Translations under genes and position numbers: made by a program
Source: Methanobacteriota archaeon
GTDB lineage: Archaea > Halobacteriota > Bog-38 > Methanoflorentales > Methanoflorentaceae
Direction: 5' to 3'
NCBI GenBank assembly: GCA_963720465.1
Contig: OY970393.1
Coordinates: 672,001-736,000 of the forward strand
DNA: 64,000 bases
The notes under the pieces: generated by a model
What the model saw: only the letters and a program-made list of their open reading frames with translations
Told to the model about the DNA's origin: nothing
Database searches by the model: none
In this document: one piece after another, positions 38,739 through 59,488 of the stretch
Layout: the number at the start of each line of letters is the position of its first letter
Position numbering within the stretch: position 1 is the stretch's first letter

Positions 38739-38799
38739 GGTTATCTCGGAACATGTTAGCTGAATGCCTTTAAATTACTTCTAAGCATCTATGGGGGCC

Positions 38800-38857
38800 T
38801 GCTAAAGCACTCGCCTTCGTACGGCGGAGGTCGCGGGTTCGAATCCGACCGAGCGCA
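38800..38857 (+). repeat. Degenerate tRNA-Val 3'-half (att-like relic) at core/accessory boundary
   Basis: CGCC-TTCGTAC-GGCGG-AGGTC-GCGGG-TTCGAAT-CCGAC-CGAGCGCA; no D-arm or 5' acceptor strand. Confidence 0.75.
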
Positions 38858-38909
38858 TTGATCTCTTTTTGCGAGGCTGAAGCGGTCGTCGGAAAAAGAA
38901 TTGCACAAA

Positions 38910-39401
38910 TCACGTGTCACGGGCTTCTTTTTCCTCCGAGGCAGGGGAGAATTCACTCTCGCTCATCAACTTCGCGCGATAGCGCTTCTCCGCTTCCTCC
39001 TCTACCTTAAACTGAAGCTCGAGGAAGTCAGTAATGACTTGCCCTGCTTGCGGGTCCCCGCTACAGATGTCAAATATTACCTCGTGTTCTCTCTGGATCT
39101 TTTCCCAGTCCTTAGCTTGCGCCTTTGCCGCTTCCACGAGCGGAAGGATTCCAACGCCCTTTGCCGCGATATATGCCAAAGCTCGGCCCTTAGCCACGTC
39201 TTGACTTTTCGTGGCATTGCGGACAAGAGATACTGCCTCCTCGAAGATTGTGACCACGTCACTCGGTCCTTCAAGGCGAATAGGGCTCAAGATAGGCGCT
39301 GCATTCTCGGCGTCTGCCTGACGCTGCGCTTGGCGCTTCTCCAGCCTGCTAATCTTCGATTCGTGTTGCTTTGTGCTAATCCTCGATCCATATTGGCTCA
39401 T
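38910..39401 (-). CDS. Hypothetical helical protein, mobile-element-like
   Basis: 163 aa; overlaps the stop of the upstream ORF (ATGA); resembles its neighbour. Confidence 0.65.
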   Translation of the reverse strand: MSQYGSRISTKQHESKISRLEKRQAQRQADAENAAPILSPIRLEGPSDVVTIFEEAVSLVRNATKSQDVAKGRALAYIAAKGVGILPLVEAAKAQAKDWEKIQREHEVIFDICSGDPQAGQVITDFLELQFKVEEEAEKRYRAKLMSESEFSPASEEKEARDT

Positions 39402-39703
39402 TTAGATTGCTCCTCGAGCGCGGCTATCCGCTGTCCTTGATTCGTGATCTCAACGACCCGGAGGCCGATTTCCACGGCCCGTAACTTGATTCTCAACTTG
39501 GCCTCAAGGGCCAGCAAAGAGCCATCGGCGTTTCGCGCCTCGGCGACGACCTCGTTGACGAGGCCGCGAAAATCTTCAGCAGTCTCAAGTTGACGCGCGG
39601 TTAGCCGTGTGTCAATACTTTTTTTCGTCAATCCCTGGGCCCGTTGCATCCGCTTGTATGCCTTGTTATATTCGCGACGTCGTTCGGGGTTTGCGTAGGG
39701 CAT
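39398..39703 (-). CDS. Hypothetical helical protein, mobile-element-like
   Basis: MPYANPERRREY...LETAED...QRIAALE; SD GAGGCG. Confidence 0.7.
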   Translation of the reverse strand: MPYANPERRREYNKAYKRMQRAQGLTKKSIDTRLTARQLETAEDFRGLVNEVVAEARNADGSLLALEAKLRIKLRAVEIGLRVVEITNQGQRIAALEEQSK

Positions 39704-40259
39704 TTACTGATCGCCTCGCTCTGTTCTTACTCCTATTCTTTCAAAACACGCTCCTTCCAGACCGAGCCCTTGGACGTCGGTGGATCTCCACAAGGGAGGG
39801 ACAAGTTCGTCGATCGTAACCGACGTGGTATTCTTATGTTGTTGTAGCATGTTAACACCACTCATGGATTCAGCAAAGCGGGTATATATACCCCATGACG
39901 CGAAAACGCCATATTGGGCTCCGTTCATTTTTTTTATAAAAAACTGCTAACCACTGGGTCAACTGCTTCATGCACGCAGCCAAAACGACGTTGCGGGGGC
40001 GGCTTGTTCACCTTTTAAAAAAATGTGGCAATCTTAACCAACGGCCGAGCGGCACACTTTCGGCACGCGCTCAGGAGACATTCATTAGTCGCCGGTCGTT
40101 GATAACAATACTAAATGGCAGCACGATTCTTGGCACAGCATCTTCTGTGCAGAATTTGAAAGAAATTCAAATTAAACAAATAGCAAGGAATAACTAGACT
40201 GCATATTGTTATCAATTTGTCTAATTTACAATGCGCACTGGATCGTTACAGGTCTTCAA

Positions 40260-40796
40260 ATGAAGAAGGAAACTTCACAAGTCGCTGGCGAGCTCATCGA
40301 ACGCCTAGACTCCCACTTAGACGACGAGAGGATAGGCAACCCCTTTTTCCCTGAACGAGGGGTACAGCCTTTCCCACTCACGCCTAGCGGATTCAAGATC
40401 ATCCAACGCCTCGATTCCGACAAAAAAACGGCGTTCGTTGATGGCGGCAATCAAGAGATACTAGGAGCGCCCAACTTTTCTGTCCAACTCAACCGGGTCT
40501 ATTTTGGCGTTTGGAACGGAAACACAAGGATACCCGAAAGGTCCATCCCCAAGCGGGTCGAGTTCTTCGCAGCGACGTTCTCCGACTTTACCGAGGATTT
40601 GAAGAACATGACTATTCCAACGTTGGTCGTACACGGCGATGATGACCAGATAGTACCAATTCAAGCTGCGGCGTTGCGTACTGTTGAAATCGCGCCGCAG
40701 GCGACACTGAAGGTTTATCCGGGCGCACCGCACGGTCTGCCGACTGTCTGCCAAGATCAGTTGAACGCGGATCTGCTTGCCTTCATCAGGGCCTGA
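40260..40796 (+). pseudogene. Chimeric ORF: NurA-like N-terminus fused to non-heme haloperoxidase C-terminus
   Basis: [10 protein letters not shown]...LNRVYF, then DFTEDLK...[11 protein letters not shown]...YPGAPHGL...NADLLAF. Confidence 0.7.
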
Positions 40797-40864
40797 TGAT
40801 ACTCAAGTACAAAGCGCTGAATTTTCACTTTTTTTCATTATTTTAGGAACACACATGCGCGGCG

Positions 40865-41842
40865 CTATCGAGTGTTGTGCGGTGCACCCAGGTAGGGGAA
40901 TTCATGCAGCAGGTCAGTGTGCGGTCCACACTTGTCCGATGTCAACTTGCCATTGTACACGGTCAGAAAGAGGTCTTTCGAATCATCCGTGGGCACGCGC
41001 CCGTTTCCGGGATAAGCCGCGCCCTTCTTGGGGTCGTACGGCAAGACGTCAGGCAACAGGCTTCTGGCCGCTGCCTGCGCCCCTTCTGGGGTGTATCCGC
41101 CGGTATGCTCCAAGACATGCGTGAACATAGCCACGAATCTCTCGTCCTGCGCCGGCTCGCCTTCGAGGTACGCCTCTTTTTCGGCGTCAGTCATGAAGGG
41201 AGTCTGTGTGGGCCGCGCCCCGCGATCGGCTTGCGCCCAGCTACCGTTAACTTGCAAGAGGGACCGGCCCCACAGGTTCACCTTCACTCCGCCGCCAAGG
41301 GCGCTAAGGGGCAGCTCCAAGGCTATGCTGCAAACATCCTTGTCAGCGAACCAGTCCGTCCCTGTGAACTGCATGTTGTTCTGAGCTCCAGCCAGGTCGA
41401 AGAAGAACGGGTCGCTTCGCCAGCCGACAAACATGCGATACGCTCCAGACTCCGTTATCTGCGCCTCGCGACCCATCGAGACGGGCGCTCCCTGAAAGAT
41501 GACTTTTCCCTCCTCGCCTCTGCCGGCGGCCTCGGTCCCCTCCGCGCGACGCACGGTCGCGGTCATTGCATTATTGCCACTGCGGAAGAAGCGCACTCGA
41601 TAAGCGATGTCCGCGACTAGGTCCCCGTTCGTATCGACTCTTAGCTCATAGAGACCCCCCGGCGCGAAAGGTTCAGCGGTTGTTGGTCCAGGTGGATTTA
41701 GCCCAAATGAAGGATGCACGTCCATAATGACAATCGACTTGCTGGCATCATCGGGTTTGGGGAACGCGAAAAGGTCAGTGAGGTCCAAGCGGGCGTCTCC
41801 CCGCGCAAAGCCGAAATTCGGTCCAGAAAAATGGTGTGTCAT
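40865..41842 (-). CDS. DUF4331 family protein
   Basis: M.HHFSG...DLTDLFAF, GWRSDPFFFDL, LLPDVL, PGNGR, FPYLG. Confidence 0.82.
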   Translation of the reverse strand: MTHHFSGPNFGFARGDARLDLTDLFAFPKPDDASKSIVIMDVHPSFGLNPPGPTTAEPFAPGGLYELRVDTNGDLVADIAYRVRFFRSGNNAMTATVRRAEGTEAAGRGEEGKVIFQGAPVSMGREAQITESGAYRMFVGWRSDPFFFDLAGAQNNMQFTGTDWFADKDVCSIALELPLSALGGGVKVNLWGRSLLQVNGSWAQADRGARPTQTPFMTDAEKEAYLEGEPAQDERFVAMFTHVLEHTGGYTPEGAQAAARSLLPDVLPYDPKKGAAYPGNGRVPTDDSKDLFLTVYNGKLTSDKCGPHTDLLHEFPYLGAPHNTR

Positions 41843-42064
41843 TTTCTTAACCCCTTAAGATACTATTTTTTCCTCCGTGGCACGAGAGAGGTGCCCTATG
41901 TCAGCCCGTAGCTCTTGCTCATTCGGCTAAATGCCTTGTCCTGCGTATCCGTGATCCGGGTAGGGATTGAGCACTGTTCGAGTGGTTGCTCTAATTTGAC
42001 AGCGAAGAGAGGGAGAAGACGACGTTTACCGTGATGCGCCTTAGACGGCTGACTGATCTTTGAA

Positions 42065-42260
42065 TTATCCCGCGTTCAGGTTCACGTCTTTCCAGCACTT
42101 CATGTTAACATCATCAAGCGTGCTCCGACATGGGATGTTTGTAATGTGACTAGTCAACGCTGGACACGCCGTGAGTAAGGATGTAGGCTCGATTTGACTG
42201 ATCCCAGCCGATTATATCGCCGTGTAGCTCGGCAAATTTTCTTAGATCTCCGAGAACGAA
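42065..42260 (-). pseudogene. Tyrosine recombinase C-terminal catalytic fragment
   Basis: Hand translation FVLGDLRKFAELHGDIIGWDQSNRAYILTHGVSSVD*SHYKHPMSEH(fs)DVNMKCWKDVNL; LRKF...H...HY pattern; internal stop and frameshift. Confidence 0.72.
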
Positions 42261-42465
42261 AGCACGTGTTCCGTTTACCCCCCCTCATCTCCTAGCTCGT
42301 TATTTCTTTTTTCGATTTGCTTAGATTTTTGGGCCCGTTCACCAGCTGACGCAGAAGTCATAGAGTGACGGCCTTGGAGCTGCCGGTAGGACAGACTAAC
42401 TCGACTGCTAAACTATGCAGACCTGGACTCAGGAGACCATATCCTTCACTTGCTAAGAGTGGGGG

Positions 42466-43107
42466 CTATAATGTCGGGATGCGCTGCGTGAGTTCGGCCC
42501 AGTCGCTGCCGATGGCGTTTTTGATGAGCTCCTTTGTTGAGGCGAAGACAGGCTCAGGCATCATCATTTGATATATGTGTACCATAGTCTCACGATCGTC
42601 CAGTCCCAGCAGCGGAAACAGCCACGCAACCAGTTCCGAGAATCGTTCCTGCGGAACCTTGCTTACCATGATGCCAATAGCCTTCCCTTGCTCGGGTAAG
42701 GAGACTCGTTCCTTGAAAATCCGGTAGTGGGTATCCTCCTTATCCAGGTGGATATCGAGATGAAAACGGAACGCAGCGGTGGCCCGGGCGGTTGCTAACG
42801 GGTCGTGTGAAGCATAGGACCTACTCAACTCGTCAAATGCTGCATCCAAACCACGATGGTCCTTCACATAGGCTTCAGCAACCAACGGGGCGACATCTTC
42901 AAGTCGGGGGAACACAGCCTCCTCTTCGCCGTCTGCGTGCCAGACCAATACTTCGTTGAAGAAGCGGAAACGCTCGACGGTGGCGGCAAGACCCTCCTTT
43001 CCCCGTGCTGCGTCCAGCGCTGCAGCATCGATACGCTCCATGTCATTCCTGAGCGCATTGTGAGAAACCCGTATCACATCGAGTGGTTGAGTCATGATCG
43101 TTGCCAC
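42466..43107 (-). CDS. Hemerythrin/HHE domain protein
   Basis: HNALR, HADGEE, DH, HLDKED. Confidence 0.85.
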   Translation of the reverse strand: MATIMTQPLDVIRVSHNALRNDMERIDAAALDAARGKEGLAATVERFRFFNEVLVWHADGEEEAVFPRLEDVAPLVAEAYVKDHRGLDAAFDELSRSYASHDPLATARATAAFRFHLDIHLDKEDTHYRIFKERVSLPEQGKAIGIMVSKVPQERFSELVAWLFPLLGLDDRETMVHIYQMMMPEPVFASTKELIKNAIGSDWAELTQRIPTL

Positions 43108-43525
43108 GAAGTCCGCTCATAAAAAGCTTGCTCTGCCATTGCAGCGGCTGTTACGCTTTTTACCAGCTAAAGCGATCTTTATCGCTTTTCACAGTCCAAA
43201 GCGAAGCGCGTAGAGCATTCTCAAGTAAGTAGCAAAATATGAGCTGGGCGACCCAAGGAAAAGATTCGGAAATTATGTCCAATGTAAATATAAAGATTCT
43301 TAATCCGTTAATTTCCTGATGTAGATGTAGAGGTTCGTCGAATATGCAGAATACATCGCCTGAGATTCATCAGACAGCGTGCTTATGAATCCGCACTCAG
43401 AAAGTTCAAAAGTGGTCGATGGACAGGCGTAACGCCAATTTTGGTCAGCGCCGCGCTGACGTTATCGACGGAATTTAGAACGAATCGGAACGAAAATCGG
43501 CGCTGACCGCGTAGACGAAAGAAGT

Positions 43526-43744
43526 TCAGCGGCACCAGCAGCACCCGCACGTTCGCCGACCTCCGCTGAGCTCGTAGTCAGTGTACAGCGGGCAGCCCGG
43601 GCAATTACACCCTTGCATCTCTGGGTTTAATTCACTCGAGCTCATGGAGCAAAACACGCCACCCACGAGGCTGTTCTTGATAAACGTGAGACAGCTCTTG
43701 CAGATGCACTTTGCTTTTGTCTCTGCGTTCAAAGGAACTTTCAT
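43526..43744 (-). CDS. DUF2769-like Cys-rich small protein (3' end possibly disrupted)
   Basis: CICKSC..F...FC...GCNCPGCP; SD GGAGGTG before ATG 43744. Confidence 0.7.
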   Translation of the reverse strand: MKVPLNAETKAKCICKSCLTFIKNSLVGGVFCSMSSSELNPEMQGCNCPGCPLYTDYELSGGRRTCGCCWCR

Positions 43745-43814
43745 GTAGGAATCACCTCCGTCACGCTTTTCAAGCACACTGGATGCTATGGCCTAAAAAT
43801 TCTTTCGCATTTGC

Positions 43815-44022
43815 CACGTTTCGGGAGCACCAGAAGGGCTACGAGGCTGAGCCAGAAAAACCCGAAAGATAGGAATACGGTCATCCCGAACGTGTTCTTC
43901 TTCTTCTTCCACTCCACGATCCCTGCAATGACCTGAGCGAGACTCCGTAGAAGATTTCCATCCGAGGATCATCGAACCGAGGGCAAAGTACCCCGCTTGC
44001 TTAAGTTAAGAAGGACTGTCGT
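43815..44022 (-). pseudogene. SatP/GPR1/FUN34/YaaH acetate transporter remnant
   Basis: Broken frames give TTVLLNL..AGYF...MIL...IFYG.LAQVIAGIVEWKK.NTFGMTVFLSFGFFWLSLV. Confidence 0.72.
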
Positions 44023-44295
44023 TATCCCGAGGCCGTGAGCCGAGAACACCGTGGCGGCTCCTCCTTACGGGCAGTGCTGCAAACTGCCGGGGTCGCGACT
44101 ATGGCTTCGGCTCCACTTTTATCCGCATGCGGCCGAACAATTGTCGGGTTGTCCGACGATTTGATCTTGTAGATGTGCACGAATAAACGCGGAAAATGAC
44201 AACCATCTGCTTTACAGGTTGGAAATTTTGACATACTTTCGGCTCGGTTAAGTAGTGGTAACGCCGATTACGCTTTTTGAAGAGATCTGTGACCT

Positions 44296-45171
44296 ATGCC
44301 GGTATTGAGCATAATTTCTTGTGGAATGCTAGAGGACGAGCTGACGCATGTACTTTCTGAAGACAAAGAACTGAATCATCTGATTTTAGTTGATGCAGTA
44401 GAAATTTATGGGCTCGCACGGAAGCTAAGAGCCCAAAATCGGCCGTTTCTTACAGCAGACCTAACTCAGATCCCGAATCTGTTGAAGAAACAGCACGACG
44501 CTACTTCATTTTCGCGCGTTCCTACGACGAGGACACGTATTGCGGACGCCGTGCGTCGACTCCGGCACGGAAGGAGTATGAGCGATGCTGTTGTCGCGAA
44601 CGTTCTCAAAATGGATCTGCACGGAAGTCCTGAACAACTAAAAAAAGAAGTATATAGAAACATCGAAATCATGTCCAGCTTCTCGGATGGGATCCTCGTG
44701 CTATATGGGCTGTGCGAGTCTCTCAGAGACCTCGAACGTGATTTTGCTGAATGCCGGCCCCCACTTTACTTCTTGGCTGATGAGTGTGGAACGAGGGTAG
44801 ACGACTGCATCGCACTAGCGCTTGGAGGGAACCAGTCCTTTTGGCAGACGTCAAGTATCCATAGTAATATCGTATTCTTCTCCACTCCGATGTGGGCATC
44901 GAACTGGCAGAGCCTGAGCGAGCATTCAAAGTTGGACCAAAAACTAACCCAAAGCGTAGAGAAAATGTTGAAACATGCACGTTTCAAATTGAGATTGAAA
45001 GTTGCTAAAGTATATACAGGTCTTCGATATGAGCCTAATTTTGACGAAAATACTCGTGACTATGCACGGCAGAAACAAATAAACGTCATTCAACTGAGGG
45101 GAAATACGGACATTGTGGAGAGATGCTACCAGAAAGCGAAAAGTAGCGTCCGTAAGAGGATAGCTGAATAA
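44296..45171 (+). CDS. DUF1638 domain protein
   Basis: SCGMLEDEL, MDLH..PEQLK, DGILVLYGLC, VDDCIA..LGG, F.TPMW. Confidence 0.8.
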   Translation: MPVLSIISCGMLEDELTHVLSEDKELNHLILVDAVEIYGLARKLRAQNRPFLTADLTQIPNLLKKQHDATSFSRVPTTRTRIADAVRRLRHGRSMSDAVVANVLKMDLHGSPEQLKKEVYRNIEIMSSFSDGILVLYGLCESLRDLERDFAECRPPLYFLADECGTRVDDCIALALGGNQSFWQTSSIHSNIVFFSTPMWASNWQSLSEHSKLDQKLTQSVEKMLKHARFKLRLKVAKVYTGLRYEPNFDENTRDYARQKQINVIQLRGNTDIVERCYQKAKSSVRKRIAE

Positions 45172-45259
45172 AAGAGAGTTTAAGCTTTAACACGGTTTCT
45201 AAAACTCATTGGTCTTGTGTCGTCAGCGCGGCGGTTCTGGGCCATGATTTGGCCCGTTG

Positions 45260-45680
45260 TCAGACTGTTTCCCACAAGCGGTTTTCCTCACCCGGGTCAA
45301 AGATGAAATCCGTTAGTCGAAACGCTTTTCCTCCTTTAATATCGATTACAGTTACGCCACTATTTTTGCCCGCTCGTCCGTCGCGATTTGTAAGTTGAAC
45401 GTCCCAATGTATAGCAGCTGTATTGGTTCTCAAACCAAAGATGCTCTTGACATAGATGTCTTTAATATCGAAGTGAATACTCTGGAATTGGTCGAACCAC
45501 TGCCTGAGCCATCCTTCGATAGCAGCCTTTCCCTTGAAAGTGCCACTTCCCGGTACTTCGCCGGGATAGATTACCGTCGCGTCATCTCGGTAGGATGACA
45601 TAACCTTGGGCAAGTTATGTTGATTCATGGATTCGAAACTTTCTTTTATCGTTTTTTTTGATTATCAATCCTGCAATCAT
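45260..45680 (-). pseudogene. NTF2/SnoaL-like protein, frameshifted in an A8 run
   Basis: SD AGGAG + ATG 45680 (MIAGLIIKK); removing one A from 45652-45659 joins it in frame to ORF 45260-45628 (G..KGKAAIEGW..WF). Confidence 0.75.
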
Positions 45681-46012
45681 TATCTCTCCTTTCAAACTAA
45701 CGGATGACGTTAGTTTTTTGAAACTGGTAAATATTCGCTCTTTTTTAATAAAACTTGCTGTAACGGAGCGGTGTACGTCAACGCAGCGCAATCATCACTT
45801 TCTTGCTACTTTTTGCGAACATTATTGGACCTCGTCGCTATCTGGACCTATGTGAACAACGACTGCACAGAAATCGCAGAGCTGTTGCTGCAGCTAGCGG
45901 ACTACAAAAACGACTTTGCCGACATGGCCGCCGGGCACTGCTTAAAAGTCACACGTTCATAGCGATAGCAACCGCCGTTTTTAACAATTTGAAAAAAAAG
46001 AGATGCAGGTCA

Positions 46013-46321
46013 CTAGGCCTGCATCGCCGCAGCTGCCTTCTTTCCAGCTTCCATCGACTGGTCGACGCTGAGTATGGGGAAAACTTCAAACTCTATGAGC
46101 GGCATCCGCGTGAGCAAGATTGCGAAAATCTCTGATTCGCTTAACTCGCTAATCGCGTAGCCTTCCCGTCCGTTGCTGAACTGCCCCCAGTCAGTATATT
46201 TGCCCGCGCTCAAGTCAGCCTTTATCATTTCGAGAAATCGCGACATGAGCTTCACAACCTCTTGCGGTGTATCGGGGGCTTTCGCGGTGTTTACCCACCA
46301 CTTAATAAAGAATTTGGTCAT
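46013..46321 (-). CDS. Small DUF3303-like (dimeric alpha-beta barrel) protein
   Basis: KFFIKW...DWGQF.NG..GYAI...FEVFPILS; SD GGAGGTGA, ATG 46321. Confidence 0.72.
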   Translation of the reverse strand: MTKFFIKWWVNTAKAPDTPQEVVKLMSRFLEMIKADLSAGKYTDWGQFSNGREGYAISELSESEIFAILLTRMPLIEFEVFPILSVDQSMEAGKKAAAAMQA

Positions 46322-46325
46322 ATCT

Positions 46326-46438
46326 TTCACCTCCTTTCGCGTTGGCGGCGGTGGTAGTGACCGCCGTTTTTTTCTAAAACATGTAAAAAGGCACTCTAAG
46401 GAAATAAATGTTGTTGTTACAGGCGCTTGTCACGGCGA
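46326..46438 (-). promoter_or_regulatory. Conserved upstream leader, copy 1 (TATA-like box, GC hairpin, SD)
   Basis: Aligns over ~110 nt with 47253-47360; hairpin CGGCGGT/ACCGCCG. Confidence 0.7.
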
Positions 46439-46470
46439 TATGCAAACGTGCCGTTTTAGCTTAGAGGCGT

Positions 46471-46502
46471 AAAAAAAGAAAAAGGAAGCGTGAACGCTTC
46501 CT
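46471..46502 (-). terminator. Hairpin + U-tract terminator
   Basis: Minus strand AGGAAGCG-TTCA-CGCTTCCT followed by TTTTCTTTTTTT, just after the 46517 ORF stop. Confidence 0.7.
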
Positions 46503-46516
46503 AGGTTTACCCAGAC

Positions 46517-46849
46517 CTACCGCTTCATCGCTGCCATCTGCTCTGCTTGGGCTTTGAGAACCTGCCGTGCGATTGCCTTTCCTGTCTCGTAGTCTATGAT
46601 TTCGTGCACTTCAAGCAGAATCCACGGGAAGTCCGCGAACGCCGTTATGAACACGTCTTTGACTTCGCCACTGAAAATTGCGTATCCTGAGGTTCCGTTT
46701 GGAAAAAGGCCAAACTCAAGTACGAGGCCACTCTTTATTTTTTTGTCCACCTCTGCGAACACCATCTCAAACCACTGCGTAGCGGCAGCAGGGTCCGTCG
46801 GCCACGGCCCGCTCGGGTTGAATCGCCAAAGGCCCATATACTTCGCCAT
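46517..46849 (-). CDS. Small DUF3303-like protein (paralog of 46013)
   Basis: KYMGLW...EFGLFPNGTSGYAIF...PWILLEVHEII. Confidence 0.72.
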   Translation of the reverse strand: MAKYMGLWRFNPSGPWPTDPAAATQWFEMVFAEVDKKIKSGLVLEFGLFPNGTSGYAIFSGEVKDVFITAFADFPWILLEVHEIIDYETGKAIARQVLKAQAEQMAAMKR

Positions 46850-46933
46850 ATTTTTTACCTCGTTTTATGTTGGCGACTGACAGTCAGCGCCGCCTTTTGA
46901 CGGTTCATTCCGTCATGAGAAAGATACAAGCCA

Positions 46934-47248: not shown

Positions 47249-47252
47249 TTCG

Positions 47253-47360
47253 TTCACCTCCTTTCGCGTTGGCGGCGGTAGTTTCCGCCGTTTTTCTAAA
47301 GCGCATAAAAGGGTACTCTAGGGGTATAAGTGTTGGTGTAACAAGCTCTCGTCACGCCGA
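47253..47360 (-). promoter_or_regulatory. Conserved upstream leader, copy 2
   Basis: Homologous to 46326-46438; hairpin CGGCGG/CCGCCG with a different loop. Confidence 0.7.
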
Positions 47361-49721: not shown

Positions 49722-49769
49722 TCTTATTTTACCAATCGGACGCGGTAATGATGGCGGACGACGAAGAAG

Positions 49770-50948: not shown

Positions 50949-51512
50949 ATGAGCATACTCGACTGGATCATTATCGCGATCATTATCGTTATTATCATCA
51001 TTGTCCTCCTCTGGGCAGTGCGGAGCTACAATCGGTTTGTAAGGCTCAAAAAAGCGTCTGAAACAACCCTCGCCCAGACCCAGGTCGCCATGAAAAAGCG
51101 GCTCGACCTGATAGGCGAGCTAGTCGACGTGGTCAAGAGCTACGCGCAGTTCGAAAAGGACACCCTCACCAAGGTCACGGAAATGCGCGCGAGCGTCGGG
51201 AACGCAGCGCCAAGCGACCTCAACAAGGTCGAAGCCGAGACCCGACCGATGTTAGGCAATTTGTTTGCTGTTGCCGAGAACTACCCTGACCTCAAAACCT
51301 CGACGGAGGTTACGAACCTTATGGGAGCGGTGCGCACGAACGAGGACGACATCGCCCGCCAGCGCTACACGTTCAACAACATCGCTCAAGAGTTCAACAC
51401 CAGGCGCGAAACTATCCCGTCGAGCCTCATCGGCCGGTTGATGCATCTCGCGCCGATCGATTATCTCAAATTCGAAGAAGCGATCGAAACCCCGCCGACC
51501 ACAACATTCTAG
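50949..51512 (+). CDS. lemA: LemA family protein
   Basis: N-terminal TM, YNRFV, KKRLDLI..LV..VKSYA.FEK.TL, AVAENYPDLK. Confidence 0.93.
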   Translation: MSILDWIIIAIIIVIIIIVLLWAVRSYNRFVRLKKASETTLAQTQVAMKKRLDLIGELVDVVKSYAQFEKDTLTKVTEMRASVGNAAPSDLNKVEAETRPMLGNLFAVAENYPDLKTSTEVTNLMGAVRTNEDDIARQRYTFNNIAQEFNTRRETIPSSLIGRLMHLAPIDYLKFEEAIETPPTTTF

Positions 51513-51521
51513 GAGGGTTCC

Positions 51522-53342
51522 ATGAGCGAAACGCGGCAACTCGCCACTATCGTCGGGATAGGCCTTGTCCTTGCCATTATAGCGCTCATTATCGTTAGTG
51601 TAGCGGGCCCCGCCACCGCCGGGAGCCTGTCCGTGAGCAACTATGACGCGACACTGACGGCGAACGGAACGCTCACCGAGAAGATCACGTACAACGTCGC
51701 GGCCAGCGACACTTACCGCTCACTCAACCGCTGGTGGGAGGCGCCGGTTACGAACAACAGCTCGCAGCCGTACATCCGGCTGACGTCCATCGCGCCGGCG
51801 GCCGGCACGGAAGCGTACCTCGTGAACGCCAGCGGCCACGTTACTGTATGGGCGAACGATTACAATGCGTTATCTGCGATTGAGAGCAATGCCAATAACA
51901 ATGAGGCGGGAATGTACAACGGGAACTACTACGACGCCGGCCTGTACACGGGCACCTACACGTGGGTCGTCCACCCGCCGCTCGAGTACGACGCTGCGGC
52001 AAACCTGACGCACCTCGACCTGCTCCTTGCTGGCGACTCACACGTCACGTACGATAACGTCAGAATCACGATTCCCGCAAACAACATCACGTGGGTGTAC
52101 GCATACCCGCCTACGCTTTACACCGAAAAGGTCAACGACACATACGTCATTACCGGCAGTTTAGCAGCAAACGAAAACCTCGCAGTCGAGGAGCTCGGAA
52201 CACCCGCCGCGTTCAGCCAGCTTAACGGCTTTCAGACGAATGTGTCCAACGTGCAGGGACTGACAGCGGCCGCGGCGTCCCAATATGACTCCGTCTATTC
52301 CTTGGCAAACATCCTCAACGAACTGGGCAGAATTGCGGTCATCGCAGTCCCGCTCCTATTAGTCGCGCTCTACGTGGGCTTCAGTCGGGAAAAGTCGTTT
52401 ACCGTGCCCGACTACCTGAGCACGATGCCGGAAATGACGCTCAAGCCGTGGCAGGTAAACCTCCTATTCAAGGCTGATCCGCTCGATTTCGACAAGGACG
52501 GGTACTACGCCACGCTCCTCGAGCTGCACCGGCGCAAGGTCATTGAAATCTCGGGAGAAGGCGCAAACATAAAAATCCGGATCCTCTCCCGTGACGTCTC
52601 AGATCCATACGAGCAGCGTGTACTCGCGTTTATTGATGCGATCTCTGCAGATGGCTTCCTTGACTCCGAATATATCACAAGCGTTCAGCAGCAGGCGTTG
52701 ACCGACGAGAGCGCTAAAAATACCGCCGCCTCGTGGAGGAAATCGATCAACGAGGTGACAAATACAGTCGATCCGTCAATCGCGCGTGACTACGTCACCT
52801 CAGGCAAACGCAGGTTTCGGCTTCCGTTGCTGATCAGTGGCGCGCTCGGCGTCTTTTCGATCCTTTTTTACGTTTCTTACCCGGACGTGCAGTACATCTT
52901 AGGCGCAGCCGCGATCTTCTGGATCGTCGTCTTCGTACAGTTCCTCGTCGCGCGCTTTGCCCCGTCAACGCTCTTCGGGCGCTGGAAAGGCGATCATTAC
53001 AAGGAGAAGCTCGAGTGGGATTCGTTCAACCACTTCCTCAAGGACATGGCGAAAATTGGCAAGTCCCCGCCCAAGGACGTGTCGATATGGGGCGACTGGC
53101 TCATCTACGGAACCGCGCTGGGCGATGGCCAAGCGGTGGAAGAGGCGATGCAGAAGTTTAACGTCAAGCTGGTAGATGCTGGAATGCCGGACAGGATGTG
53201 GAGTATGAACACGGCAATGGACACGACATTCTATACTATGATGACCTTTGGCGGCGACTCCGGCGGCGACTCCGGCGGCGGCTCCAGCGACGACTTCGGC
53301 GGCGACAGCGGCTTCGGCGGCGGCGGAGCGGGGGGATGGTAA
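51522..53342 (+). CDS. DUF2207 membrane protein
   Basis: Follows lemA; ectodomain, TMs, W..F..FL, W..WLIYGTALG, Gly-rich GGGGAGGW tail. Confidence 0.88.
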   Translation: MSETRQLATIVGIGLVLAIIALIIVSVAGPATAGSLSVSNYDATLTANGTLTEKITYNVAASDTYRSLNRWWEAPVTNNSSQPYIRLTSIAPAAGTEAYLVNASGHVTVWANDYNALSAIESNANNNEAGMYNGNYYDAGLYTGTYTWVVHPPLEYDAAANLTHLDLLLAGDSHVTYDNVRITIPANNITWVYAYPPTLYTEKVNDTYVITGSLAANENLAVEELGTPAAFSQLNGFQTNVSNVQGLTAAAASQYDSVYSLANILNELGRIAVIAVPLLLVALYVGFSREKSFTVPDYLSTMPEMTLKPWQVNLLFKADPLDFDKDGYYATLLELHRRKVIEISGEGANIKIRILSRDVSDPYEQRVLAFIDAISADGFLDSEYITSVQQQALTDESAKNTAASWRKSINEVTNTVDPSIARDYVTSGKRRFRLPLLISGALGVFSILFYVSYPDVQYILGAAAIFWIVVFVQFLVARFAPSTLFGRWKGDHYKEKLEWDSFNHFLKDMAKIGKSPPKDVSIWGDWLIYGTALGDGQAVEEAMQKFNVKLVDAGMPDRMWSMNTAMDTTFYTMMTFGGDSGGDSGGGSSDDFGGDSGFGGGGAGGW

Positions 53343-53495
53343 GCCCATTGAGCGGCGTGTTATGGGAGTCATCGCCCGTTTCAGACGGAGGTCACATCAA
53401 GCGCCCTGTTAGAGCAGTGGCTGCTCATTTAGATAAAACGGCGATTATTGTAGTAGGTCTGTACTCGCTATATACGAATTATTCCCTTTGTTAGG

Positions 53496-53756
53496 TCAGA
53501 ACGTTGGTTGCGATCTGTATTTCACCGATAACGCTGTTATTAGTGCCCACGCCCCCGCATCGATAACGCCGCCAAGTACCGCTAACGGTAGACTGAGTGT
53601 CGCGTACACGCAAGTTAACACGACGAGAAAAGAGCACGTTGTCGCGCTGGAGAGCAGGTTCATACCTGTCTTTTCCCTATGCATGTCGCGTATTTGAGGG
53701 ATAAGAAGGAACCCGAAGACAAGGCTACAGAGGAGGATTACCGTGTCCTGCCACAT
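53496..53756 (-). CDS. Small 3-TM protein (PQ-loop/SemiSWEET-like)
   Basis: LIPQI motif after first TM; SD AGGAG. Confidence 0.6.
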   Translation of the reverse strand: MWQDTVILLCSLVFGFLLIPQIRDMHREKTGMNLLSSATTCSFLVVLTCVYATLSLPLAVLGGVIDAGAWALITALSVKYRSQPTF

Positions 53757-54074
53757 CGTTGTTATTTATCTCCTATTGCCATAAGCGCGGGTTTATTAAC
53801 ACGTTAAGGATTAAGGCCGCTATGCGTGAATCCTCTTTTTTCTCCTCTTTGCTTTCGTATTGCTTCGGTTGGGTTTAGCTTCTGAATCGGGTTTTTCGTC
53901 ATCCTTGTTACTTTTTCAAGATAAGCGGTTGGTTGTGGTCTTAACGAGTGCTAATCGAGACAGGACCAAGCAGCCGCACACTTATAGACTTGATATGTGG
54001 CGATGTTCGACAGAGATCCGGAGAAGTTCGCTTAAGCCCTGGATCGCGCCAGACTACCGAACTGCCAGCCGCGC

Positions 54075-54395
54075 TTAGAAAGTAACGATTTTGTCGCACT
54101 CCTTCACTATTTCGTACAAATCTGCAAGCGTTGACATTGGACACGTTTCCGAACTCGTGGATTGGCGGATTTTGAGGCAGGTGCCACAGGCAAATATAGC
54201 GCCGCCACCCTCAACGAAAGAGCGAATCTGCTCCGTGACCTTGAACGTGTCAGTATCAAGGGTTTCACTCTCTACACCTTTACCACTGAGGAATGCCTTC
54301 ACCTCGTCACCCGCTTTCAAGGCGTAGTTTCCGAACCGGAAGGCGTTCCATACGGTCTCTGGATCATTTGAATAGACGATCAATCCTAGTTTCAC
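54075..54395 (-). CDS. DsrE family protein
   Basis: NDPETVWNAFRFGN...FLSGKGVE...ACGTCL...CPMST; start GTG 54395 overlapping upstream stop. Confidence 0.88.
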   Translation of the reverse strand: MKLGLIVYSNDPETVWNAFRFGNYALKAGDEVKAFLSGKGVESETLDTDTFKVTEQIRSFVEGGGAIFACGTCLKIRQSTSSETCPMSTLADLYEIVKECDKIVTF

Positions 54396-55039
54396 GTTTT
54401 TTCCTCCCTGTATCCAGTAATGAGCGCAAACCCCCCCTGCCCGTGCCCCTCTTTGACCGGATCGACGGCGGTCATCTCTTCGGTAAACGCGAAGAGCGTT
54501 TGACACGTTCGTATAGCGCTGAATCCCACCGTTTGCAGCCACGCGATCACCTGCGTTACTGAATGAAAGTGGGCGTATCGATAGAACACGCCCTTCTGCT
54601 TTCGCCGTTCATAGGACTCCCCGAGAGGGGTCTCGCGGTCAATCATCCCGATTACGATGCGCCCTCCGGGTACAAGAACTCTGTTCGCTTCTCGAAGGGC
54701 CTGCTCTGGGTCGTCGGTAAAACAAAGCGTGGTAACCATCACGACAAAATCAAACGACTCATCGTCGAACGGGAGCTCTTCTGCGCTCGCCTCGTAGACG
54801 TCTATGCCTCGTTGCCGAGCTATCGATGCCATAGCGTGCGCCGGTTCCACCCCGACTTTGATGCCAACTCGAGAAGCAACGCGTCCTGTCCCGACGCCTA
54901 CATCCAACCCTTTGCCACCCCGCGGGAGAAGGCTTCGCATTGCTACCACTTCTGACTCGTAGGCATAGGCGTGAGTCTCAAACCACCGATCGTATTCACG
55001 AGCGTGCTTCTCAAAGACGCGGATGTTATAATCTGACAT
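54392..55039 (-). CDS. Class I SAM-dependent methyltransferase
   Basis: LDVGVGTG, AEELPF...SFD, RVLVPGG. Confidence 0.92.
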   Translation of the reverse strand: MSDYNIRVFEKHAREYDRWFETHAYAYESEVVAMRSLLPRGGKGLDVGVGTGRVASRVGIKVGVEPAHAMASIARQRGIDVYEASAEELPFDDESFDFVVMVTTLCFTDDPEQALREANRVLVPGGRIVIGMIDRETPLGESYERRKQKGVFYRYAHFHSVTQVIAWLQTVGFSAIRTCQTLFAFTEEMTAVDPVKEGHGQGGFALITGYREEKT

Positions 55040-55110
55040 AAGCTATATGTCTGTGTACTAATGCGAAGATTAAATTATAACGCACCAGGCGCTCCCTCTA
55101 GCGTGTAACC

Positions 55111-55347
55111 ATGGAAATCGACATCAACATCGTAGCTCACGATCTCCTGTGGAGGCGTATGTCTATTGGAAGAAAGCAGGAATACGTCAAGAGTTGGGGC
55201 GCTTTAAAGGACGAGATAATTGAGAAGGAGATGGCACGACTTATTGACGACGGGTATGCCGTTCAGCACGACAACGTTCTCGAATTAACGTCAGAGGGCA
55301 ACGGCCTCTACAAAAGAATGACGAGCCGGTGCCCCAAGACGGAGTAG
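55111..55347 (+). CDS. Hypothetical protein (wHTH-like end LELTSEG)
   Basis: 78-aa ORF. Confidence 0.5.
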   Translation: MEIDINIVAHDLLWRRMSIGRKQEYVKSWGALKDEIIEKEMARLIDDGYAVQHDNVLELTSEGNGLYKRMTSRCPKTE

Positions 55348-55352
55348 CGCAA

Positions 55353-55637
55353 ATGAAAGCGTACGACGTGAAGACGTTGCGCCCGTGCCGAAGCGGCGGA
55401 ATAATTGTAGAGGGACATTTCAGCAATGAATTTGCCATGCACGAGTTATGTTCATTATTACACGGTGTAGCAAAGTGCTCGGAAAAATTAGGGGTCGCAC
55501 GGTTTTCCCACGAAGGGTGTGACATTACTATCTACAGAACTGGGCGAGTTGACGTGCACGGGGTTACTTCTGAAGAAGAGGCAATTGAATTTATCAACGA
55601 CATAAAACTCATTGTCGAAGATGCTTTTGTCGATTAG
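55353..55637 (+). CDS. Hypothetical protein (TBP-like beta-sheet pattern)
   Basis: RPCRSG...ITIYRTGRVDVHG..SEEEA. Confidence 0.6.
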   Translation: MKAYDVKTLRPCRSGGIIVEGHFSNEFAMHELCSLLHGVAKCSEKLGVARFSHEGCDITIYRTGRVDVHGVTSEEEAIEFINDIKLIVEDAFVD

Positions 55638-55648
55638 TTCTCTCTAGA

Positions 55649-55935
55649 CTAGATCAGCTTTTCAATGATTTCAACCGCATCCCGGACAAACGCCGGACAT
55701 AGTGCCATGACGACTTTGTTCTTTTTTGCCTCAGCAACTTGTTGCGGGTCTGCCAGGTTGTATCCAAGCAGTCCTGTGCATTTCACTGAGCCATTACGCA
55801 GCTTAAATTGCCTGAGAAATTCGCCGACTACCGCATAGGTCTTTTCTTTTGCAGCTTTGTCTTTCGCCGTGATCCTGCCGTATCGCAGCCCGATGACCAT
55901 AATCGCGCCTGAGACAGCGCCGCAGATGTCATCTG
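55649..55935 (-). pseudogene. C-GCAxxG-C-C redox protein, 5'-truncated
   Basis: ICGAVSGAIMVIGL...F...NGSVKC..LLG...CP.FV; N-terminal half missing. Confidence 0.78.
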
Positions 55936-56309
55936 GTGTAGGTTATTCCAGCACCAAACCCCTGCGAGATCCGAAGAGCCAGAAGAGCCAGATCCGGATC
56001 GAGCCCGAAGTCCTGTGCAAAGACCGAAAGCACAGCCTGTGAACAGCTGAAACCGTGCTGAAAAAGAGTGACCGCCTCATCTGCTTTCGACATATGCAGC
56101 AATCATGCAAGGACAGCAATAATGATTCCGCTCGCGCTAGAACCACAGCGTTGCTCGCTAACGATCCCTAAAGCCGTTGCCAATGCCCTCCCCAAACCTC
56201 ACAGCAGAATGGCACATCAGGGCAGAGGATATTTCTGAATTTGCACGCCGAGCGAGGTAAAAGAGTGGACAATCACCTCATGTCGACTCTTTTATTGGCA
56301 ATACCTTGA

Positions 56310-56984
56310 CTAGATCATCCCCGAGCCAAAGTTACTGCCCATGTGCTCCTGCATTTCCTGCTGCATGTCGGTGCGTGTGTTCGCGTTCGGCCCGTAGCCC
56401 ATGTACGGCCCCATGCCATAGCCATTTCCGCTAAGCCTGTGCATATCGTTCCACATGTCCCGCCACATGTTTTGCTGGTACGGTGCTTGCCCGACAGCAC
56501 CGCCGGTGATGACCATGCAGTAGTAAGGCATGAGCGGTGAGCTGCCATATTCCACGGCCGCCCCTCTCTTGGCACTCGCGTTAAACCCTGACCACGCCGA
56601 CGCATTCTGCTGCACTGCAGCGTACCCTTGCCCCATAAACAATGTTCTCATCGAAACGAACTGTGCTTGCGCCATTGATGCATTATTGCACGCTTGGACG
56701 CTCACGGTGTAGGTGCCGTTGCTATCGCTCACCGTACCGTTGTACACTGCAATCCCTGCTTGTGGACTGGGTTGCAGTGAAAACGGCGTTACCACCGTGA
56801 AGTTTAGCTGTTGCATCGTGGTCGCGAGGTACTGAGCGATGGCTTGGTCTTGTGCAGCCGAGGTTGTCGTGCTGGTGCTTGGAGTCGCCGTAGGGGAAGA
56901 CGTCGTAGGGCTCGTGCAGCCCGCAGCGAGAACAGCTGCGAGCATCACTAGCGCTAACGCGCCTGCCACAAACGATTTTTTCAT
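56310..56984 (-). CDS. Secreted lipoprotein with Met/Gly-rich C-terminus
   Basis: Lipobox AAGC, Thr/Ser linker, MWRDMW...GYGMGPYMG tail. Confidence 0.75.
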   Translation of the reverse strand: MKKSFVAGALALVMLAAVLAAGCTSPTTSSPTATPSTSTTTSAAQDQAIAQYLATTMQQLNFTVVTPFSLQPSPQAGIAVYNGTVSDSNGTYTVSVQACNNASMAQAQFVSMRTLFMGQGYAAVQQNASAWSGFNASAKRGAAVEYGSSPLMPYYCMVITGGAVGQAPYQQNMWRDMWNDMHRLSGNGYGMGPYMGYGPNANTRTDMQQEMQEHMGSNFGSGMI

Positions 56985-57298
56985 TGTAAAACCTCGTAGT
57001 TACTCATAATGATGCCGGTAATGTATAGCTCGGAGCTTTAAGCATTGGGTGTATCATGCACCGCGCTGGAGCTGAGTATGGCTTGAAACCGCAGGAATAT
57101 TGTTTCGTATCGAATAGGGAAGCGTATGCCACGTCCGGCATTGAGGTTTAAGCGTGAACAGCCAAACTCCCTTTGCGAAACGCTTTGCGTACTCATTTGT
57201 GCTTGGTCGCAGAAGGCTAATCATAACGATTAAGGTGCAGCGACGACTTTGCACGTGTTATGCTAGCCACTGAACATTACCGATGCTACGATGTTACG

Positions 57299-57562
57299 AT
57301 GCCAAACCACGAGCTGTTGGAAGTCCATCACTCCAAAATCTCGCTTCACCACGCAAAAGCAGATTATACCTACCCAACGATACGATTACCACATACATTC
57401 TCAGCGCTTGCAGGACTATCGACGCAAATCTTTCAAACTGTGCACAAAGGAGCGCTTGTCTTTCTTGTGGTCGTGTCATCTGCAAACGTTTCCAGAAACA
57501 CTTTCGAGCGATCTAAAAACAGCGGTGCTTGCGCTAAAGCCTCCGTCTTCACACGGCGTTAA
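57299..57562 (+). CDS. AbrB-like integrase N-fragment homolog, copy 2, ending in a tRNA-Val anticodon arm
   Basis: HHAKADYTYPTIRLP..FS.LAGL.T.IFQ.VH.GAL.FLVV, close homolog of 49421; last codons overlap CGTC-TTCACAC-GGCG (57544-57558). Confidence 0.75.
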   Translation: MPNHELLEVHHSKISLHHAKADYTYPTIRLPHTFSALAGLSTQIFQTVHKGALVFLVVVSSANVSRNTFERSKNSGACAKASVFTRR

Positions 57563-58367
57563 TTTAGACGATAAAAACTCTCCGGAATTCCCTGCTGAGG
57601 CTCACTGTTAAGGGCTTTCACCTTCGTGGCGATCTGTCCCGTGCCTTTCAGCATCCTGAAGCGTTGCAGACCCTCCACGACAATGTGATTCTCCCAGAAA
57701 AGGAGCTCGCGCTTAAGTCTTGATATTGTCAACAAGAAATCTCATTATATGAGAGACTACCTTCCCTGACTGTCCTCACAGATTTCGAGCCCAGAGATCG
57801 CAAGCTTTTCCGCGTCGTATGCGCACATCACCTGCTGCAACGCGTCAATGATCAGGCGAAGAGGCGGGGGTGCCCTCTTCTGCGATCGGGGGGCTATGCG
57901 GCCCTGCTACAATCGATGCGACCATTACTGCAAGGTCTGGGCAAGCTGCTCTTTCAACTCAACGGCAAGCGTTCGTAAATACGATCCTTCGAGCCGTTCG
58001 GCTCTGGCGAGGCAAGCTGCACGCCGCTCCGTAGATTACCACGTACCTTAGTTGGGCGTCTCGCCGAGAGCGTCCCACCATCTCTATCAGCTTTCCAGCG
58101 GTACTGTGTGAATGTAGGCAGCAAAGAGGTTGTAGAGCGCTTGTTTCTTGTCGCTTGTAACGGTCTCGGAATATATTGCTTGCACAAGGCTTGAATTTGC
58201 ACTTCAGGTGATATTTGAAATGCAAGAACGTGTTGAAAGGAAAAGGAAAGAGGTGAAGAGGATACCGAACACCCCTTCACAATCCCCACAAGGCCAGTAT
58301 CGCTCTGATCAGTGCTGCATCGCCAGTAACCGCCTATGCTGCCTTCTTCATTACAATGCGTTACGGC

Positions 58368-58772
58368 TTAGAGTATGTGTAGCCCAAGGGAAAAGACACC
58401 TGGGGATTCGAGCAGACTCGGATTGAGCGTACCCGTGAGGACTAGACAATCGCCCTTACTGGGAACGCCAGAGGCGATGAACGTAGCACCAGTGCTACCG
58501 GACCGGGCGTATTGCAGCAAGTATGTCGTGCCGGGTTTCATCCCGTGGTCATAGCAGACGCACACGAAGTGACCGTTATAGTTGTCAACGATTATTATGC
58601 CGCCAACTTTGCCATCTGGAGCGATAACGGTGAAAATGGAAATGGGCGATTTGCTCACCTGCACTCCTTTGGGGGCAACCGGCACAGCACCCGCAGGGAT
58701 CGCACCAATGCTGGTTACCAGCAGCAGGCACGCGAGGCTTGCCAGTACTACAGCTCTCATATTAATTCTCAT
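58368..58772 (-). CDS. Secreted hypothetical protein
   Basis: Signal peptide; SD GAGGTGA. Confidence 0.65.
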   Translation of the reverse strand: MRINMRAVVLASLACLLLVTSIGAIPAGAVPVAPKGVQVSKSPISIFTVIAPDGKVGGIIIVDNYNGHFVCVCYDHGMKPGTTYLLQYARSGSTGATFIASGVPSKGDCLVLTGTLNPSLLESPGVFSLGLHIL

Positions 58773-58898
58773 AACTTCACCTCGATTCGGGTTTTTAAAA
58801 CCGATTAGCGTAGGCTATCATAAGATAAAAAATTGCCCTTTTTGACACGCTTTGTGAGAGTGCCCGACGCGCGAGATTCAGCGTAAATCGCAACGGTT

Positions 58899-59153
58899 AT
58901 GCGCACACGGGAGATAATGCAGCGCATGCAATCGATCTGCACGCATAAGATAAGCATCCAAAGCTCAAAGCCATCTCATGCCTGCCCCATTGTCAGGCAC
59001 CCACCTGAGTTTGGCGAACTGGCGGGAACACGCGCAGAGATCTATCAAACAAGCTATGACGATGGGATTGCTTTTTTAGTGAAGATCATCGATCGTTCTA
59101 AAAAGAAGCTCAGCAAGGGCTCCAATTTCGAAAAGGAGCCTTCACACTGCTGA
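58899..59153 (+). CDS. AbrB-like integrase N-fragment homolog, copy 3 (diverged)
   Basis: HKISIQSSK...PIVR.P.EF..LAG..AEIYQT...G.AFLV.I; runs into a tRNA half. Confidence 0.65.
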   Translation: MRTREIMQRMQSICTHKISIQSSKPSHACPIVRHPPEFGELAGTRAEIYQTSYDDGIAFLVKIIDRSKKKLSKGSNFEKEPSHC

Positions 59154-59182
59154 GGTCGCCGATTCGAATCCGGCCGAGCCCA
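59137..59182 (+). repeat. Diverged 3' half of tRNA-Val(CAC) (att core)
   Basis: AGCC-TTCACAC-TGCT-GAGGTC-GCCGA-TTCGAAT-CCGGC-CGAGCCC-A. Confidence 0.82.
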
Positions 59183-59488
59183 TCGTTCTTTTGTCAATCG
59201 GAAACATTTAAGCCGTTTACTAGGCATTTGTCCAGTACGAGAATAATGGCAAAAAAGAAGCACAAGAAGGACAAAAAGTCGCACAACCCATCCTTTGCGT
59301 GTTCGAGAAAACGTGACTCGATCCTTAGACGGCACTACGTAGGCTTGTCGCGTCAACGTGACAGGTGCTTTTCAGCACTATTGTCGAAAAAAGCAAAGAA
59401 AATCAGAAGAACTATGCACATTGAGGGCGTGTCTGCAACCGAGTGCTGCCGTTAGCTATCGGAATTCTTAAAGAACATAAGATTTGCA

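Follow-up and report, generated by a model that had tools for sequence, protein, structure and literature searches.

What leaves a run of severed transfer RNA (tRNA) gene ends in an archaeal chromosome, with the same small open reading frame (ORF) standing before most of them? The question is raised by a window of 64,000 nucleotides (nt), the whole stretch of DNA that was analysed, which comprises bases 672001–736000 of the single-contig, 2.31-Mb genome (G+C 51.7%) of a Methanobacteriota archaeon (GenBank GCA_963720465.1, contig OY970393.1) belonging to an uncultured Halobacteriota lineage known from sediment and peat metagenomes. Four 3′ parts of a tRNA-Val(CAC) gene lie on the plus strand between positions 38811 and 59182 of this window, and they are treated here as attachment sites (att1 to att4) of integrative elements. 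The arrangement very probably records an integrase gene that carries its attachment site (attP) within its own coding frame, the small ORFs encoding its N-terminal domain (N-domain) and a separate downstream part, int(C), encoding the remainder, both being halves of one gene cut at the internal attP. The sites and the ORFs that precede them are as follows.

38811–38857, plus strand: att1, decayed tRNA-Val(CAC) 3′ part at the left border of the island, with no N-domain before it
49421–49912, plus strand: chimeric junction ORF of 163 amino acids (aa), with the N-domain core at 49466–49621 followed by a linker, by att2, and by the beginning of the following integrase (MADDEEEKLPTS...), after which the frame shifts
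49676–49721, plus strand: att2, tRNA-Val(CAC) 3′ part with a foreign T-stem (GGGAG/CTCCC) and the acceptor strand CGGGCCCA
57260–57562, plus strand: N-domain ORF of 100 aa, core at 57317–57472, with TAA directly after the att3 remnant
57544–57558, plus strand: att3, remnant of 12–15 nt (CTTCACACGGCG) joined to unrelated DNA
58899–59153, plus strand: decayed N-domain ORF of 84 aa, core at 58929–59081, with a stop within att4
59137–59182, plus strand: att4, tRNA-Val(CAC) 3′ part with 3 mismatches in 45 against the host gene

The three ORFs at 49421–49912, 57260–57562, and 58899–59153 share a core of ∼52 residues, which a hidden Markov model (HMM) recovers at E-values of 1.4e-25, 5e-28, and 9.7e-25, respectively, and none of them has a match in Pfam or NCBIfam. 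Three of the halves are therefore preceded by homologous ORFs that run into the tRNA sequence, as a preliminary description of this DNA had stated, and the ORF at 49421–49912 reads through its tRNA half altogether. No ORF precedes the half at 38811, which is adjoined by the core genes FttA and endonuclease III. Truncated pieces of integrase follow the halves that end at 49721 and 59182.

How the small ORFs and the integrase pieces belong together can be seen in a 21.9-kb element bounded by tRNA-His elsewhere in the same genome (tRNA-His gene at 2276581–2276654; direct repeat of 44 + 13 nt at 2298517–2298560), in which the 44-nt tRNA-His 3′ part and 13 further bases are identical at both ends. 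In the integrated element, the N-domain and int(C) stand at opposite ends, 21 kb apart, and excision in silico joins the ends into a single frame of 509 codons, with the N-domain motif at residue 58, the att at about residues 157–171, and the catalytic HG motif at residue 475. Similarly, a genome from the other genus of the family (G032, locus L082, 966–2315) encodes the N-domain and a complete integrase in one uninterrupted ORF of 450 aa, and at locus L028, the N-domain, a whole tRNA-Asp (74 of 74 bases identical), and the integrase share one frame that is broken by a single TGA. Among relatives, the downstream match to the integrase model is in phase with the N-domain in 14 of 17 junctions, at N-domain-to-att distances of 40–80 nt; for the matches that extend beyond the att and the spacer after it, 7 of 10 are in phase and 3 of 10 are not. 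The spacer of 63 nt that separates att from an ATG in nine copies contains no stop in 189 codons in phase, against 7 and 13 stops in 180 codons in the other two frames. Substitutions among these copies are spread over the three codon positions as 220/203/254, and the linker would thus be weakly constrained, because the third-position excess is small. The translated att is read in different frames in different members of the family. The restored 509-codon frame, the L082 fusion, the L028 frame, and the in-phase junctions together bear out the earlier proposal that each ORF with its tRNA half is a junction between the N-terminal gene part, int(N), and att.

These same observations bear on a rival account, in which the N-domain would be encoded by a small gene of its own just upstream of attP, for a regulator or directionality factor, and an unsplit integrase gene would start at the ATG after att. 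All 9 copies of one subfamily keep that ATG 63 nt downstream of att, and it could be an independent start codon; three N-domain ORFs of the genome, and one in a relative, end at a TAA directly after a 12-nt att remnant; 203 database proteins of 55–175 aa consist of the N-domain alone; and no N-domain fusion was found among proteins of at least 514 aa. Against two separate genes stand the uninterrupted 450-aa ORF of L082, the single frame obtained from the tRNA-His element, the common frame across tRNA-Asp in L028, the phase kept in 14 of 17 junctions despite the varying distance to att, and a spacer that is free of stops only in phase, while short N-domain proteins are what gene callers would be expected to report from split genes. 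Taken with this evidence, the separate-gene account is unlikely.

Further observations weigh against a single gene cut at attP and have to be set beside those that favour it. Three of the 17 junctions are out of phase, and because the copies are related to one another, both inside a genome and between species, the counts lack independence. No uninterrupted full-length gene in which the N-domain, a functional att, and the integrase follow one another was found for the tRNA-Val class, and a search with P0103 for longer proteins found four, all of them tRNA-adjacent int(C) parts over-extended into the tRNA, with the N-domain in none. The intact L082 gene is itself reduced, as it has no long acidic linker and its att, which has lost the T-arm, is cut down to 16 nt of tRNA-Val, 17 unrelated nt, and AGCCCA; the reduced att may explain why this gene has persisted unsplit, and L082 may be a disarmed or domesticated copy. 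The match of PF00589 to the int(C) module is marginal (27.0 bits against a cut-off of 27.1, E = 4.5e-6). Free or circular forms were looked for and not found: a search of viral contigs with one N-domain as query yielded 62 pattern matches and 0 confirmed cases, and a tblastn search of plasmids and phages with P0105 gave no match.

Two further observations concern the same junctions. The junction of CACACGGCG with TTAATTTAG... at window position 57558/57559 recurs at genome positions 736285 and 1286526 and at locus L051 of another species, the N-domain ORF closing in each case at the TAA after the 12-nt att remnant; this recurrence at three diverged loci and in a relative looks like a conserved “solo N-domain” arrangement. 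In contigs of four sequencing runs compared with 39301–59300 (at least 90% likeness), the joints 49586>59172, 49533>57535, and 57368>59152 were encountered, and they were rejected as signs of excision; the sides of 22–27 letters link repeated N-domain and att pieces and are taken as cross-matches of relatives’ junctions.

The tRNA parts themselves were compared with the host tRNA-Val(CAC) gene, which lies at genome position c191891–191964, on the opposite strand and 480 kb from the window, and which is followed neither by int(C) nor by any other element sequence. By blastn, att1 (38811–38854) is 90.9% identical to tRNA positions 28–71, with the anticodon mutated to CGT and the T-stem broken; att2 (49676–49697) is 100% identical to positions 29–50, through the anticodon arm, and its T-arm diverges after position 50 with all five T-stem pairs kept; and att4 (59138–59182) is 93.3% identical to positions 30–74. 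The att3 remnant has 12 exact bases (57547–57558), a score within the null range obtained from 600 random windows of 300 nt (median 11, 95th percentile 14, 99th percentile 17), and it is counted nevertheless because it stands 74 nt after the N-domain, in register with the full att sites, at a recurrent junction. Of the four halves first proposed, those at 38811, 49676, and 59137 are therefore clear, whereas that at 57544 is reduced to a 12-nt remnant inside the null range. The compensated T-stem changes reported with them stand in part, since GGGAG/CTCCC is fully paired, while GCCGA/CCGGC reflects a single A–C mismatch against the host tRNA and is not compensated. No intact tRNA, and thus no intact tRNA-Val among the halves, was found by Rfam within 38000–60000 at E ≤ 1 (two matches there are sub-threshold chance matches).

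Decayed or very short halves, such as those at 38811 and 57544, in an array without an intact tRNA could also be ordinary pseudogenes or a tRNA-derived repeat (resembling miniature inverted-repeat transposable elements or short interspersed nuclear elements), the adjacency of the ORFs being coincidental. When the genome was searched with 44 tRNA queries, however, the 19 partial tRNA copies recovered (Val 11, Asp 5, and His 3) came from only 5 of the 44 tRNA genes, which are exactly those flanked by an N-domain or int(C). The halves begin at a fixed point, between tRNA positions 28 and 38, and reach the 3′ end, and the 21.9-kb element is flanked by exact direct repeats. In the face of these regularities, a coincidental origin of the halves is exceedingly improbable.

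On the reading of a single gene split at attP, the integrase gene would run from an N-domain of ∼60 residues through a short linker to attP, and from there through an acidic linker, which varies in length, to the core-binding and catalytic domains. Its attP would copy either the 3′ part of a tRNA gene or the gene in its entirety and would be translated within the protein. Recombination with the chromosomal tRNA would cut the integrase gene in two; for the sense class of N-domain, which is the type found in the window, int(C) would come to lie beside the rebuilt tRNA and the N-domain with att at the far border. If the same tRNA took up further elements, chimeras in the order N-domain, att, int(C) would arise, and the chimeras of the window would since have decayed via frameshifts, truncations, and cargo turnover. 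Growth of the island by repeated insertion, as the preliminary description supposed, is consistent with the order of N-domain, att, and integrase, but the order of events is a reconstruction and no intact tRNA stands at the head of the array. The complete class-A element of genome G011 (L013 and L068) likewise has an intact tRNA at neither end.

At its head, the array has an old, eroded junction in place of a tRNA gene. The att1 scar upstream of endonuclease III is also present in genomes G010 and G011 (L077 and L079), where ∼60 nt of the linker between N-domain and att are kept and the N-domain is gone, and it is not present in G006, G008, and G018. Because the scar (window 38739–38857) occupies the same position in three species of the genus, the border of the island would predate their split. 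The genes between the att sites are ordinary accessory genes and encode a hydrolase, DUF4331, hemerythrin, DUF1638, SnoaL, LemA, DUF2207, methyltransferase, and DsrE-like proteins.

What identifies int(C) as an integrase is the part beyond att, where a conserved TTTTnCCAATCGGA-like stretch leads into a long frame made up of the acidic linker and a module of ∼310 residues. An AlphaFold2 model of int(C), with a predicted local distance difference test (pLDDT) score of 71.7, matches lambda Int, Cre, Tn1549 Int, and XerH (Foldseek E 3e-4 to 3e-3, probability 0.99–1.00), and the structural model thus shows a predicted tyrosine-recombinase fold for the catalytic part. The PHROG family phrog_1 (“integrase”) matches int(C) at 1.1e-7, and a search of PDB sequences with P0105 gave no match. 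In alignment A3, R162, K194, R254, and H277 are invariant and Y287 is conserved in at least 90% of sequences, and these five are read as putative catalytic residues. At tRNA-Val(TAC) (c1560128–1560201), a complete int(C) follows directly, in a frame of 508 codons that is open from inside the tRNA and lacks an N-domain. The integrase presumably is, or was, active. The integrase remains of the window are these.

49772–49801, plus strand: in the integrase 5′ region, two copies of the near-palindrome AAGTTGCCAACT that are 18 nt apart
50050–50542, plus strand: truncated integrase that covers the core-binding domain and reaches into the catalytic domain (HMM 221–384 of 545)
59183–59296, plus strand: 63-nt spacer and integrase start, with the conserved ATG at 59246 and first codons MAKKKHKKDKK..., then decay
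42153–42263, minus strand: solitary integrase C-terminal fragment (HMM 482–518 of 545)
60458–60550, minus strand: solitary integrase C-terminal fragment (HMM 482–512)

The truncated integrase at 50050–50542 is followed by the cargo genes for LemA and DUF2207, and the decayed integrase start at 59183–59296 is followed by host-type genes. Paired near-palindromes of the form AAGTTGC(A)CAACT, 18–21 nt apart and ∼50–110 nt after att, occupy the integrase 5′ region at window positions 49772–49801, at genome position c1560003–1560036, and at many other loci, and they are translated as KLPTS/KLHN repeats. The genome contains 5 matches to the pattern against 1.6 expected, 4 of the 5 lying at window positions 49772–49801 and genome position c1560003–1560036, and the pairs are candidate protein-binding (arm-type) sites.

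The window is one of many places in which the N-domain occurs, and it belongs to an integrase family that had not been described before and that is very abundant in its uncultured archaeal lineage. The N-domain HMM finds about 32 loci in the 2.3-Mb host genome, a search with the protein gave matches for all 18 genomes from the host's own family and for none of 12 from other families in the phylum, and an alignment search was positive for 24 of 24 genomes of the class (which amount to one family and two genera), with 1–43 matches each. In a collection of 5.8 billion proteins, the 203 relatives of 55–175 aa are all unnamed or “hypothetical,” carry a Pfam domain in no case, and bear “Halobacteriota archaeon” as their sole organism label. 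The linkage of N-domain ORFs to tRNA parts, for which an HMM search had been suggested as a check, was recovered in 16 of the 32 loci of the host genome, where a tRNA or part of one lies within 300 nt downstream at scores above the 99th percentile of the null; 3 of the remaining loci are followed by the 12-nt remnant and the other 13 by nothing of the kind.

Two classes of N-domain can be told apart. One class (LLEIHRSKISLHH...) reads in the sense of the tRNA and precedes the halves, and all three N-domains of the window have this same-sense arrangement. The second class (MQHIGKSKI... or KKIFTTKISLQSS...) is antisense and directly follows intact tRNA-Val(GAC), tRNA-Asp, and tRNA-His genes. The elements had initially been taken to target tRNA-Val specifically, which does not hold, as tRNA-Asp and tRNA-His are also used and the second class stands antisense to its tRNA.

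What the N-domain itself might be was approached through its predicted structure. The monomer model (pLDDT 80.6) has a β-(loop)-α-β-β topology, and a swapped dimer would not be visible in a model of one chain; a prediction of a two-copy complex reached a median of 0.39 (mark 0.42) and was used neither way. Both this topology and the pattern YPxIRLP..f..LaG recall AbrB-type domains, and under a third account, the N-domain family would consist of AbrB/MazE-type antitoxins or transcription factors and would have expanded independently of the integrase. In hhalign, the IRLP segment is paired with the corresponding segment of the genome’s own PF04014 proteins, but over 19 columns and at a probability of 2%. 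Pfam and NCBIfam are silent on the N-domain, the 7 loci with PF04014 in the genome include no N-domain locus, and a Foldseek search with the model gave a best E of 2.6 and no AbrB-type chain in the 50 ranks listed. No toxin partner was seen, and the fusion to the integrase is directly visible in the tRNA-His excision frame and in L082; an independent antitoxin or regulator family is therefore very unlikely. The swapped-hairpin AbrB/SpoVT fold envisaged in the preliminary description is without statistical support, and the resemblance to AbrB would be a local motif only. Searches with the N-domain profile against PDB sequences (best E 0.69, an 18-residue stretch of Emg1) and of the ESM Atlas (best score 0.78, below the lead level) gave no better relative. 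By its place in the gene, the N-domain may bind DNA or mediate assembly.

The closest precedent is provided by the suicidal integrases of the SSV, pTN3-like, and pT26-2-like elements, which, in the sections of two publications available to us (PMC8371274, PMC7253208), are described as carrying the PF16795 signature, as apparently deriving from a single event, and as occurring in Sulfolobales, Thermococcales, and Archaeoglobales and in five Methanosarcinales cases. As these sections describe them, SSV-type elements (SSV1, pTN3, and pT26-2) share with the N-domain family an attP inside the integrase frame, integration that yields int(N) and int(C), an att formed by a 40–60-bp tRNA 3′ part, and an element bounded by tRNA-derived direct repeats; a tyrosine-recombinase catalytic fold and an att readable in different frames in different members are also common to both. 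In contrast, PF16795 matches neither P0105 nor P0126 at E ≤ 0.1, nor L082 at E ≤ 1, and genome-wide it gives only two sub-threshold matches, both at other loci. The N-domain family further differs in its new conserved N-terminal domain, in the acidic linker of up to ∼200 residues after att, and in an att that occurs in either orientation and comprises a whole tRNA gene in one subfamily, and, measured against the same sections, in hosts that are not hyperthermophiles. The family thus has the arrangement of suicidal integrases and lacks their PF16795 signature, and the kinship with SSV1, pTN3, and pT26-2 integrases that had been assumed for it is not shown. Self-splitting integrases have been described as an oddity of archaea, in hyperthermophiles and a few Methanosarcinales, and some of the five Methanosarcinales cases may be related to the N-domain family. 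A full-text search found no literature linking suicidal or SSV-type integrases to metagenome-assembled genomes of Halobacteriota or to peat lineages.

Tandem integration separates the two groups as well. The available part of Badel et al. (2020; PMC7253208) states that tandem integration has never been seen for elements with suicidal integrases, and that of PMC8371274 reports tandem arrays for pNOB8-type integrases, whereas tandem or chimeric junctions of N-domain, att, and integrase are common in the N-domain family. Nearly all of its chimeric junctions are broken, which fits the argument that the authors of PMC7253208 and PMC8371274 make in these parts, namely, that an intact rebuilt gene excises itself. 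The pNOB8-type elements are likewise archaeal tRNA-targeting integrative elements, but their gene, by the same partial account, stays whole, while the tRNA-His element described here is split and the int(C) at tRNA-Val(TAC) is without an N-domain. Lambda-type integrases resemble the family in their small N-terminal, core-binding, and catalytic domains, in lambda Int being the best structural match of int(C), and in paired short repeats near att; they differ in that the lambda attP lies outside the gene, and the N-domain model matches no solved fold. By analogy with lambda, the N-domain may bind arm sites.

The family therefore follows the gene-splitting logic of suicidal integrases with a new N-terminal domain, no PF16795, and many chimeric tandem junctions. 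A bolder joint reading, which we regard as rather doubtful, would see in it a second, independent self-splitting integrase outside the PF16795 clade, which arose in a mesophilic uncultured class, reached dozens of copies per 2-Mb genome, and tolerates tandem insertion, with an N-domain that reads the paired palindromes and with solitary 3′ fragments as traces of cassette-like gene capture. The family makes testable the repeated origin of the suicidal arrangement, the persistence and exit of such elements, and their impact on small archaeal genomes, and the scar-bounded islands carry ordinary metabolic genes here. It also supplies an annotation rule, by which about 200 “hypothetical” database proteins of 55–175 aa would be named as N-terminal fragments of integrases. 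Its relevance is to specialists in archaeal mobile elements, and it is not categorically new.

The foreign T-arm of att2 raises the further question of where this copy came from. The variant occurs in 0 of 23 other genomes of the class, and public species genomes contain no exact match to its 35 nt. A degenerate T-arm pattern matched at least 119 stretches, in many archaea, and the 80 loci examined among them include three tRNA-Val(CAC) genes at 3–4 mismatches in 45 from att2; no donor was identified among the matches listed. The sequence comparison makes it plausible that att2 is an element-borne att from another host. A contig end in sequencing run X19 carries GGTTATGACGT directly before 49676, which hints weakly at an intact tRNA-Val elsewhere that has an att2-type 3′ part. 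The idea that the halves come from different source tRNAs or hosts gains from the resemblance of the att2 T-arm to real archaeal tRNA-Val(CAC) genes.

Integrase sequence is also scattered through the genome apart from complete junctions. Among 52 integrase-related loci, 36 are solitary C-terminal fragments holding the last ∼25–100 codons, with a variable 5′ edge and homology that stops at the stop codon. They are densest at genome positions 2294190–2312034 (minus strand) and 331–385 kb, and in one array, 6 of 9 have an ORF on the same strand 2–160 nt downstream; promoter retention or cassette-like capture is possible. At locus L003 of genome G006 (661–1827, minus strand), a chimera of N-domain, att, and integrase stays in frame as it passes into lectin-like tandem repeats (PF26607/DUF346 type). 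The resulting ORF of 388 aa is probably an accidental fusion; as a protein query, this ORF was swamped by its C-terminal lectin-like repeats (PF26607), and only P0103 and P0105 were useful. One other repeated sequence of the island is listed here.

57780–58249, minus strand: member of a repeated element-gene family with about 10 copies at ∼75% DNA identity and no Pfam match, several copies lying near other N-domain loci

Automated tRNA prediction is affected by the same sequences. ARAGORN reports 37 tRNAs in the genome without intron search and 52 with introns, several of them implausible (introns of 577–1242 nt) and partly situated at N-domain or att loci, for example, at genome positions 747219 and 2112483. 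The observation covers window positions 202–296 and the genome as a whole. Its 92-nt “tRNA-Leu(CAA)” at 49630–49721 was rejected as spurious, Rfam finding no tRNA within 38000–60000. The halves of tRNA genes can thus seed false tRNA predictions.

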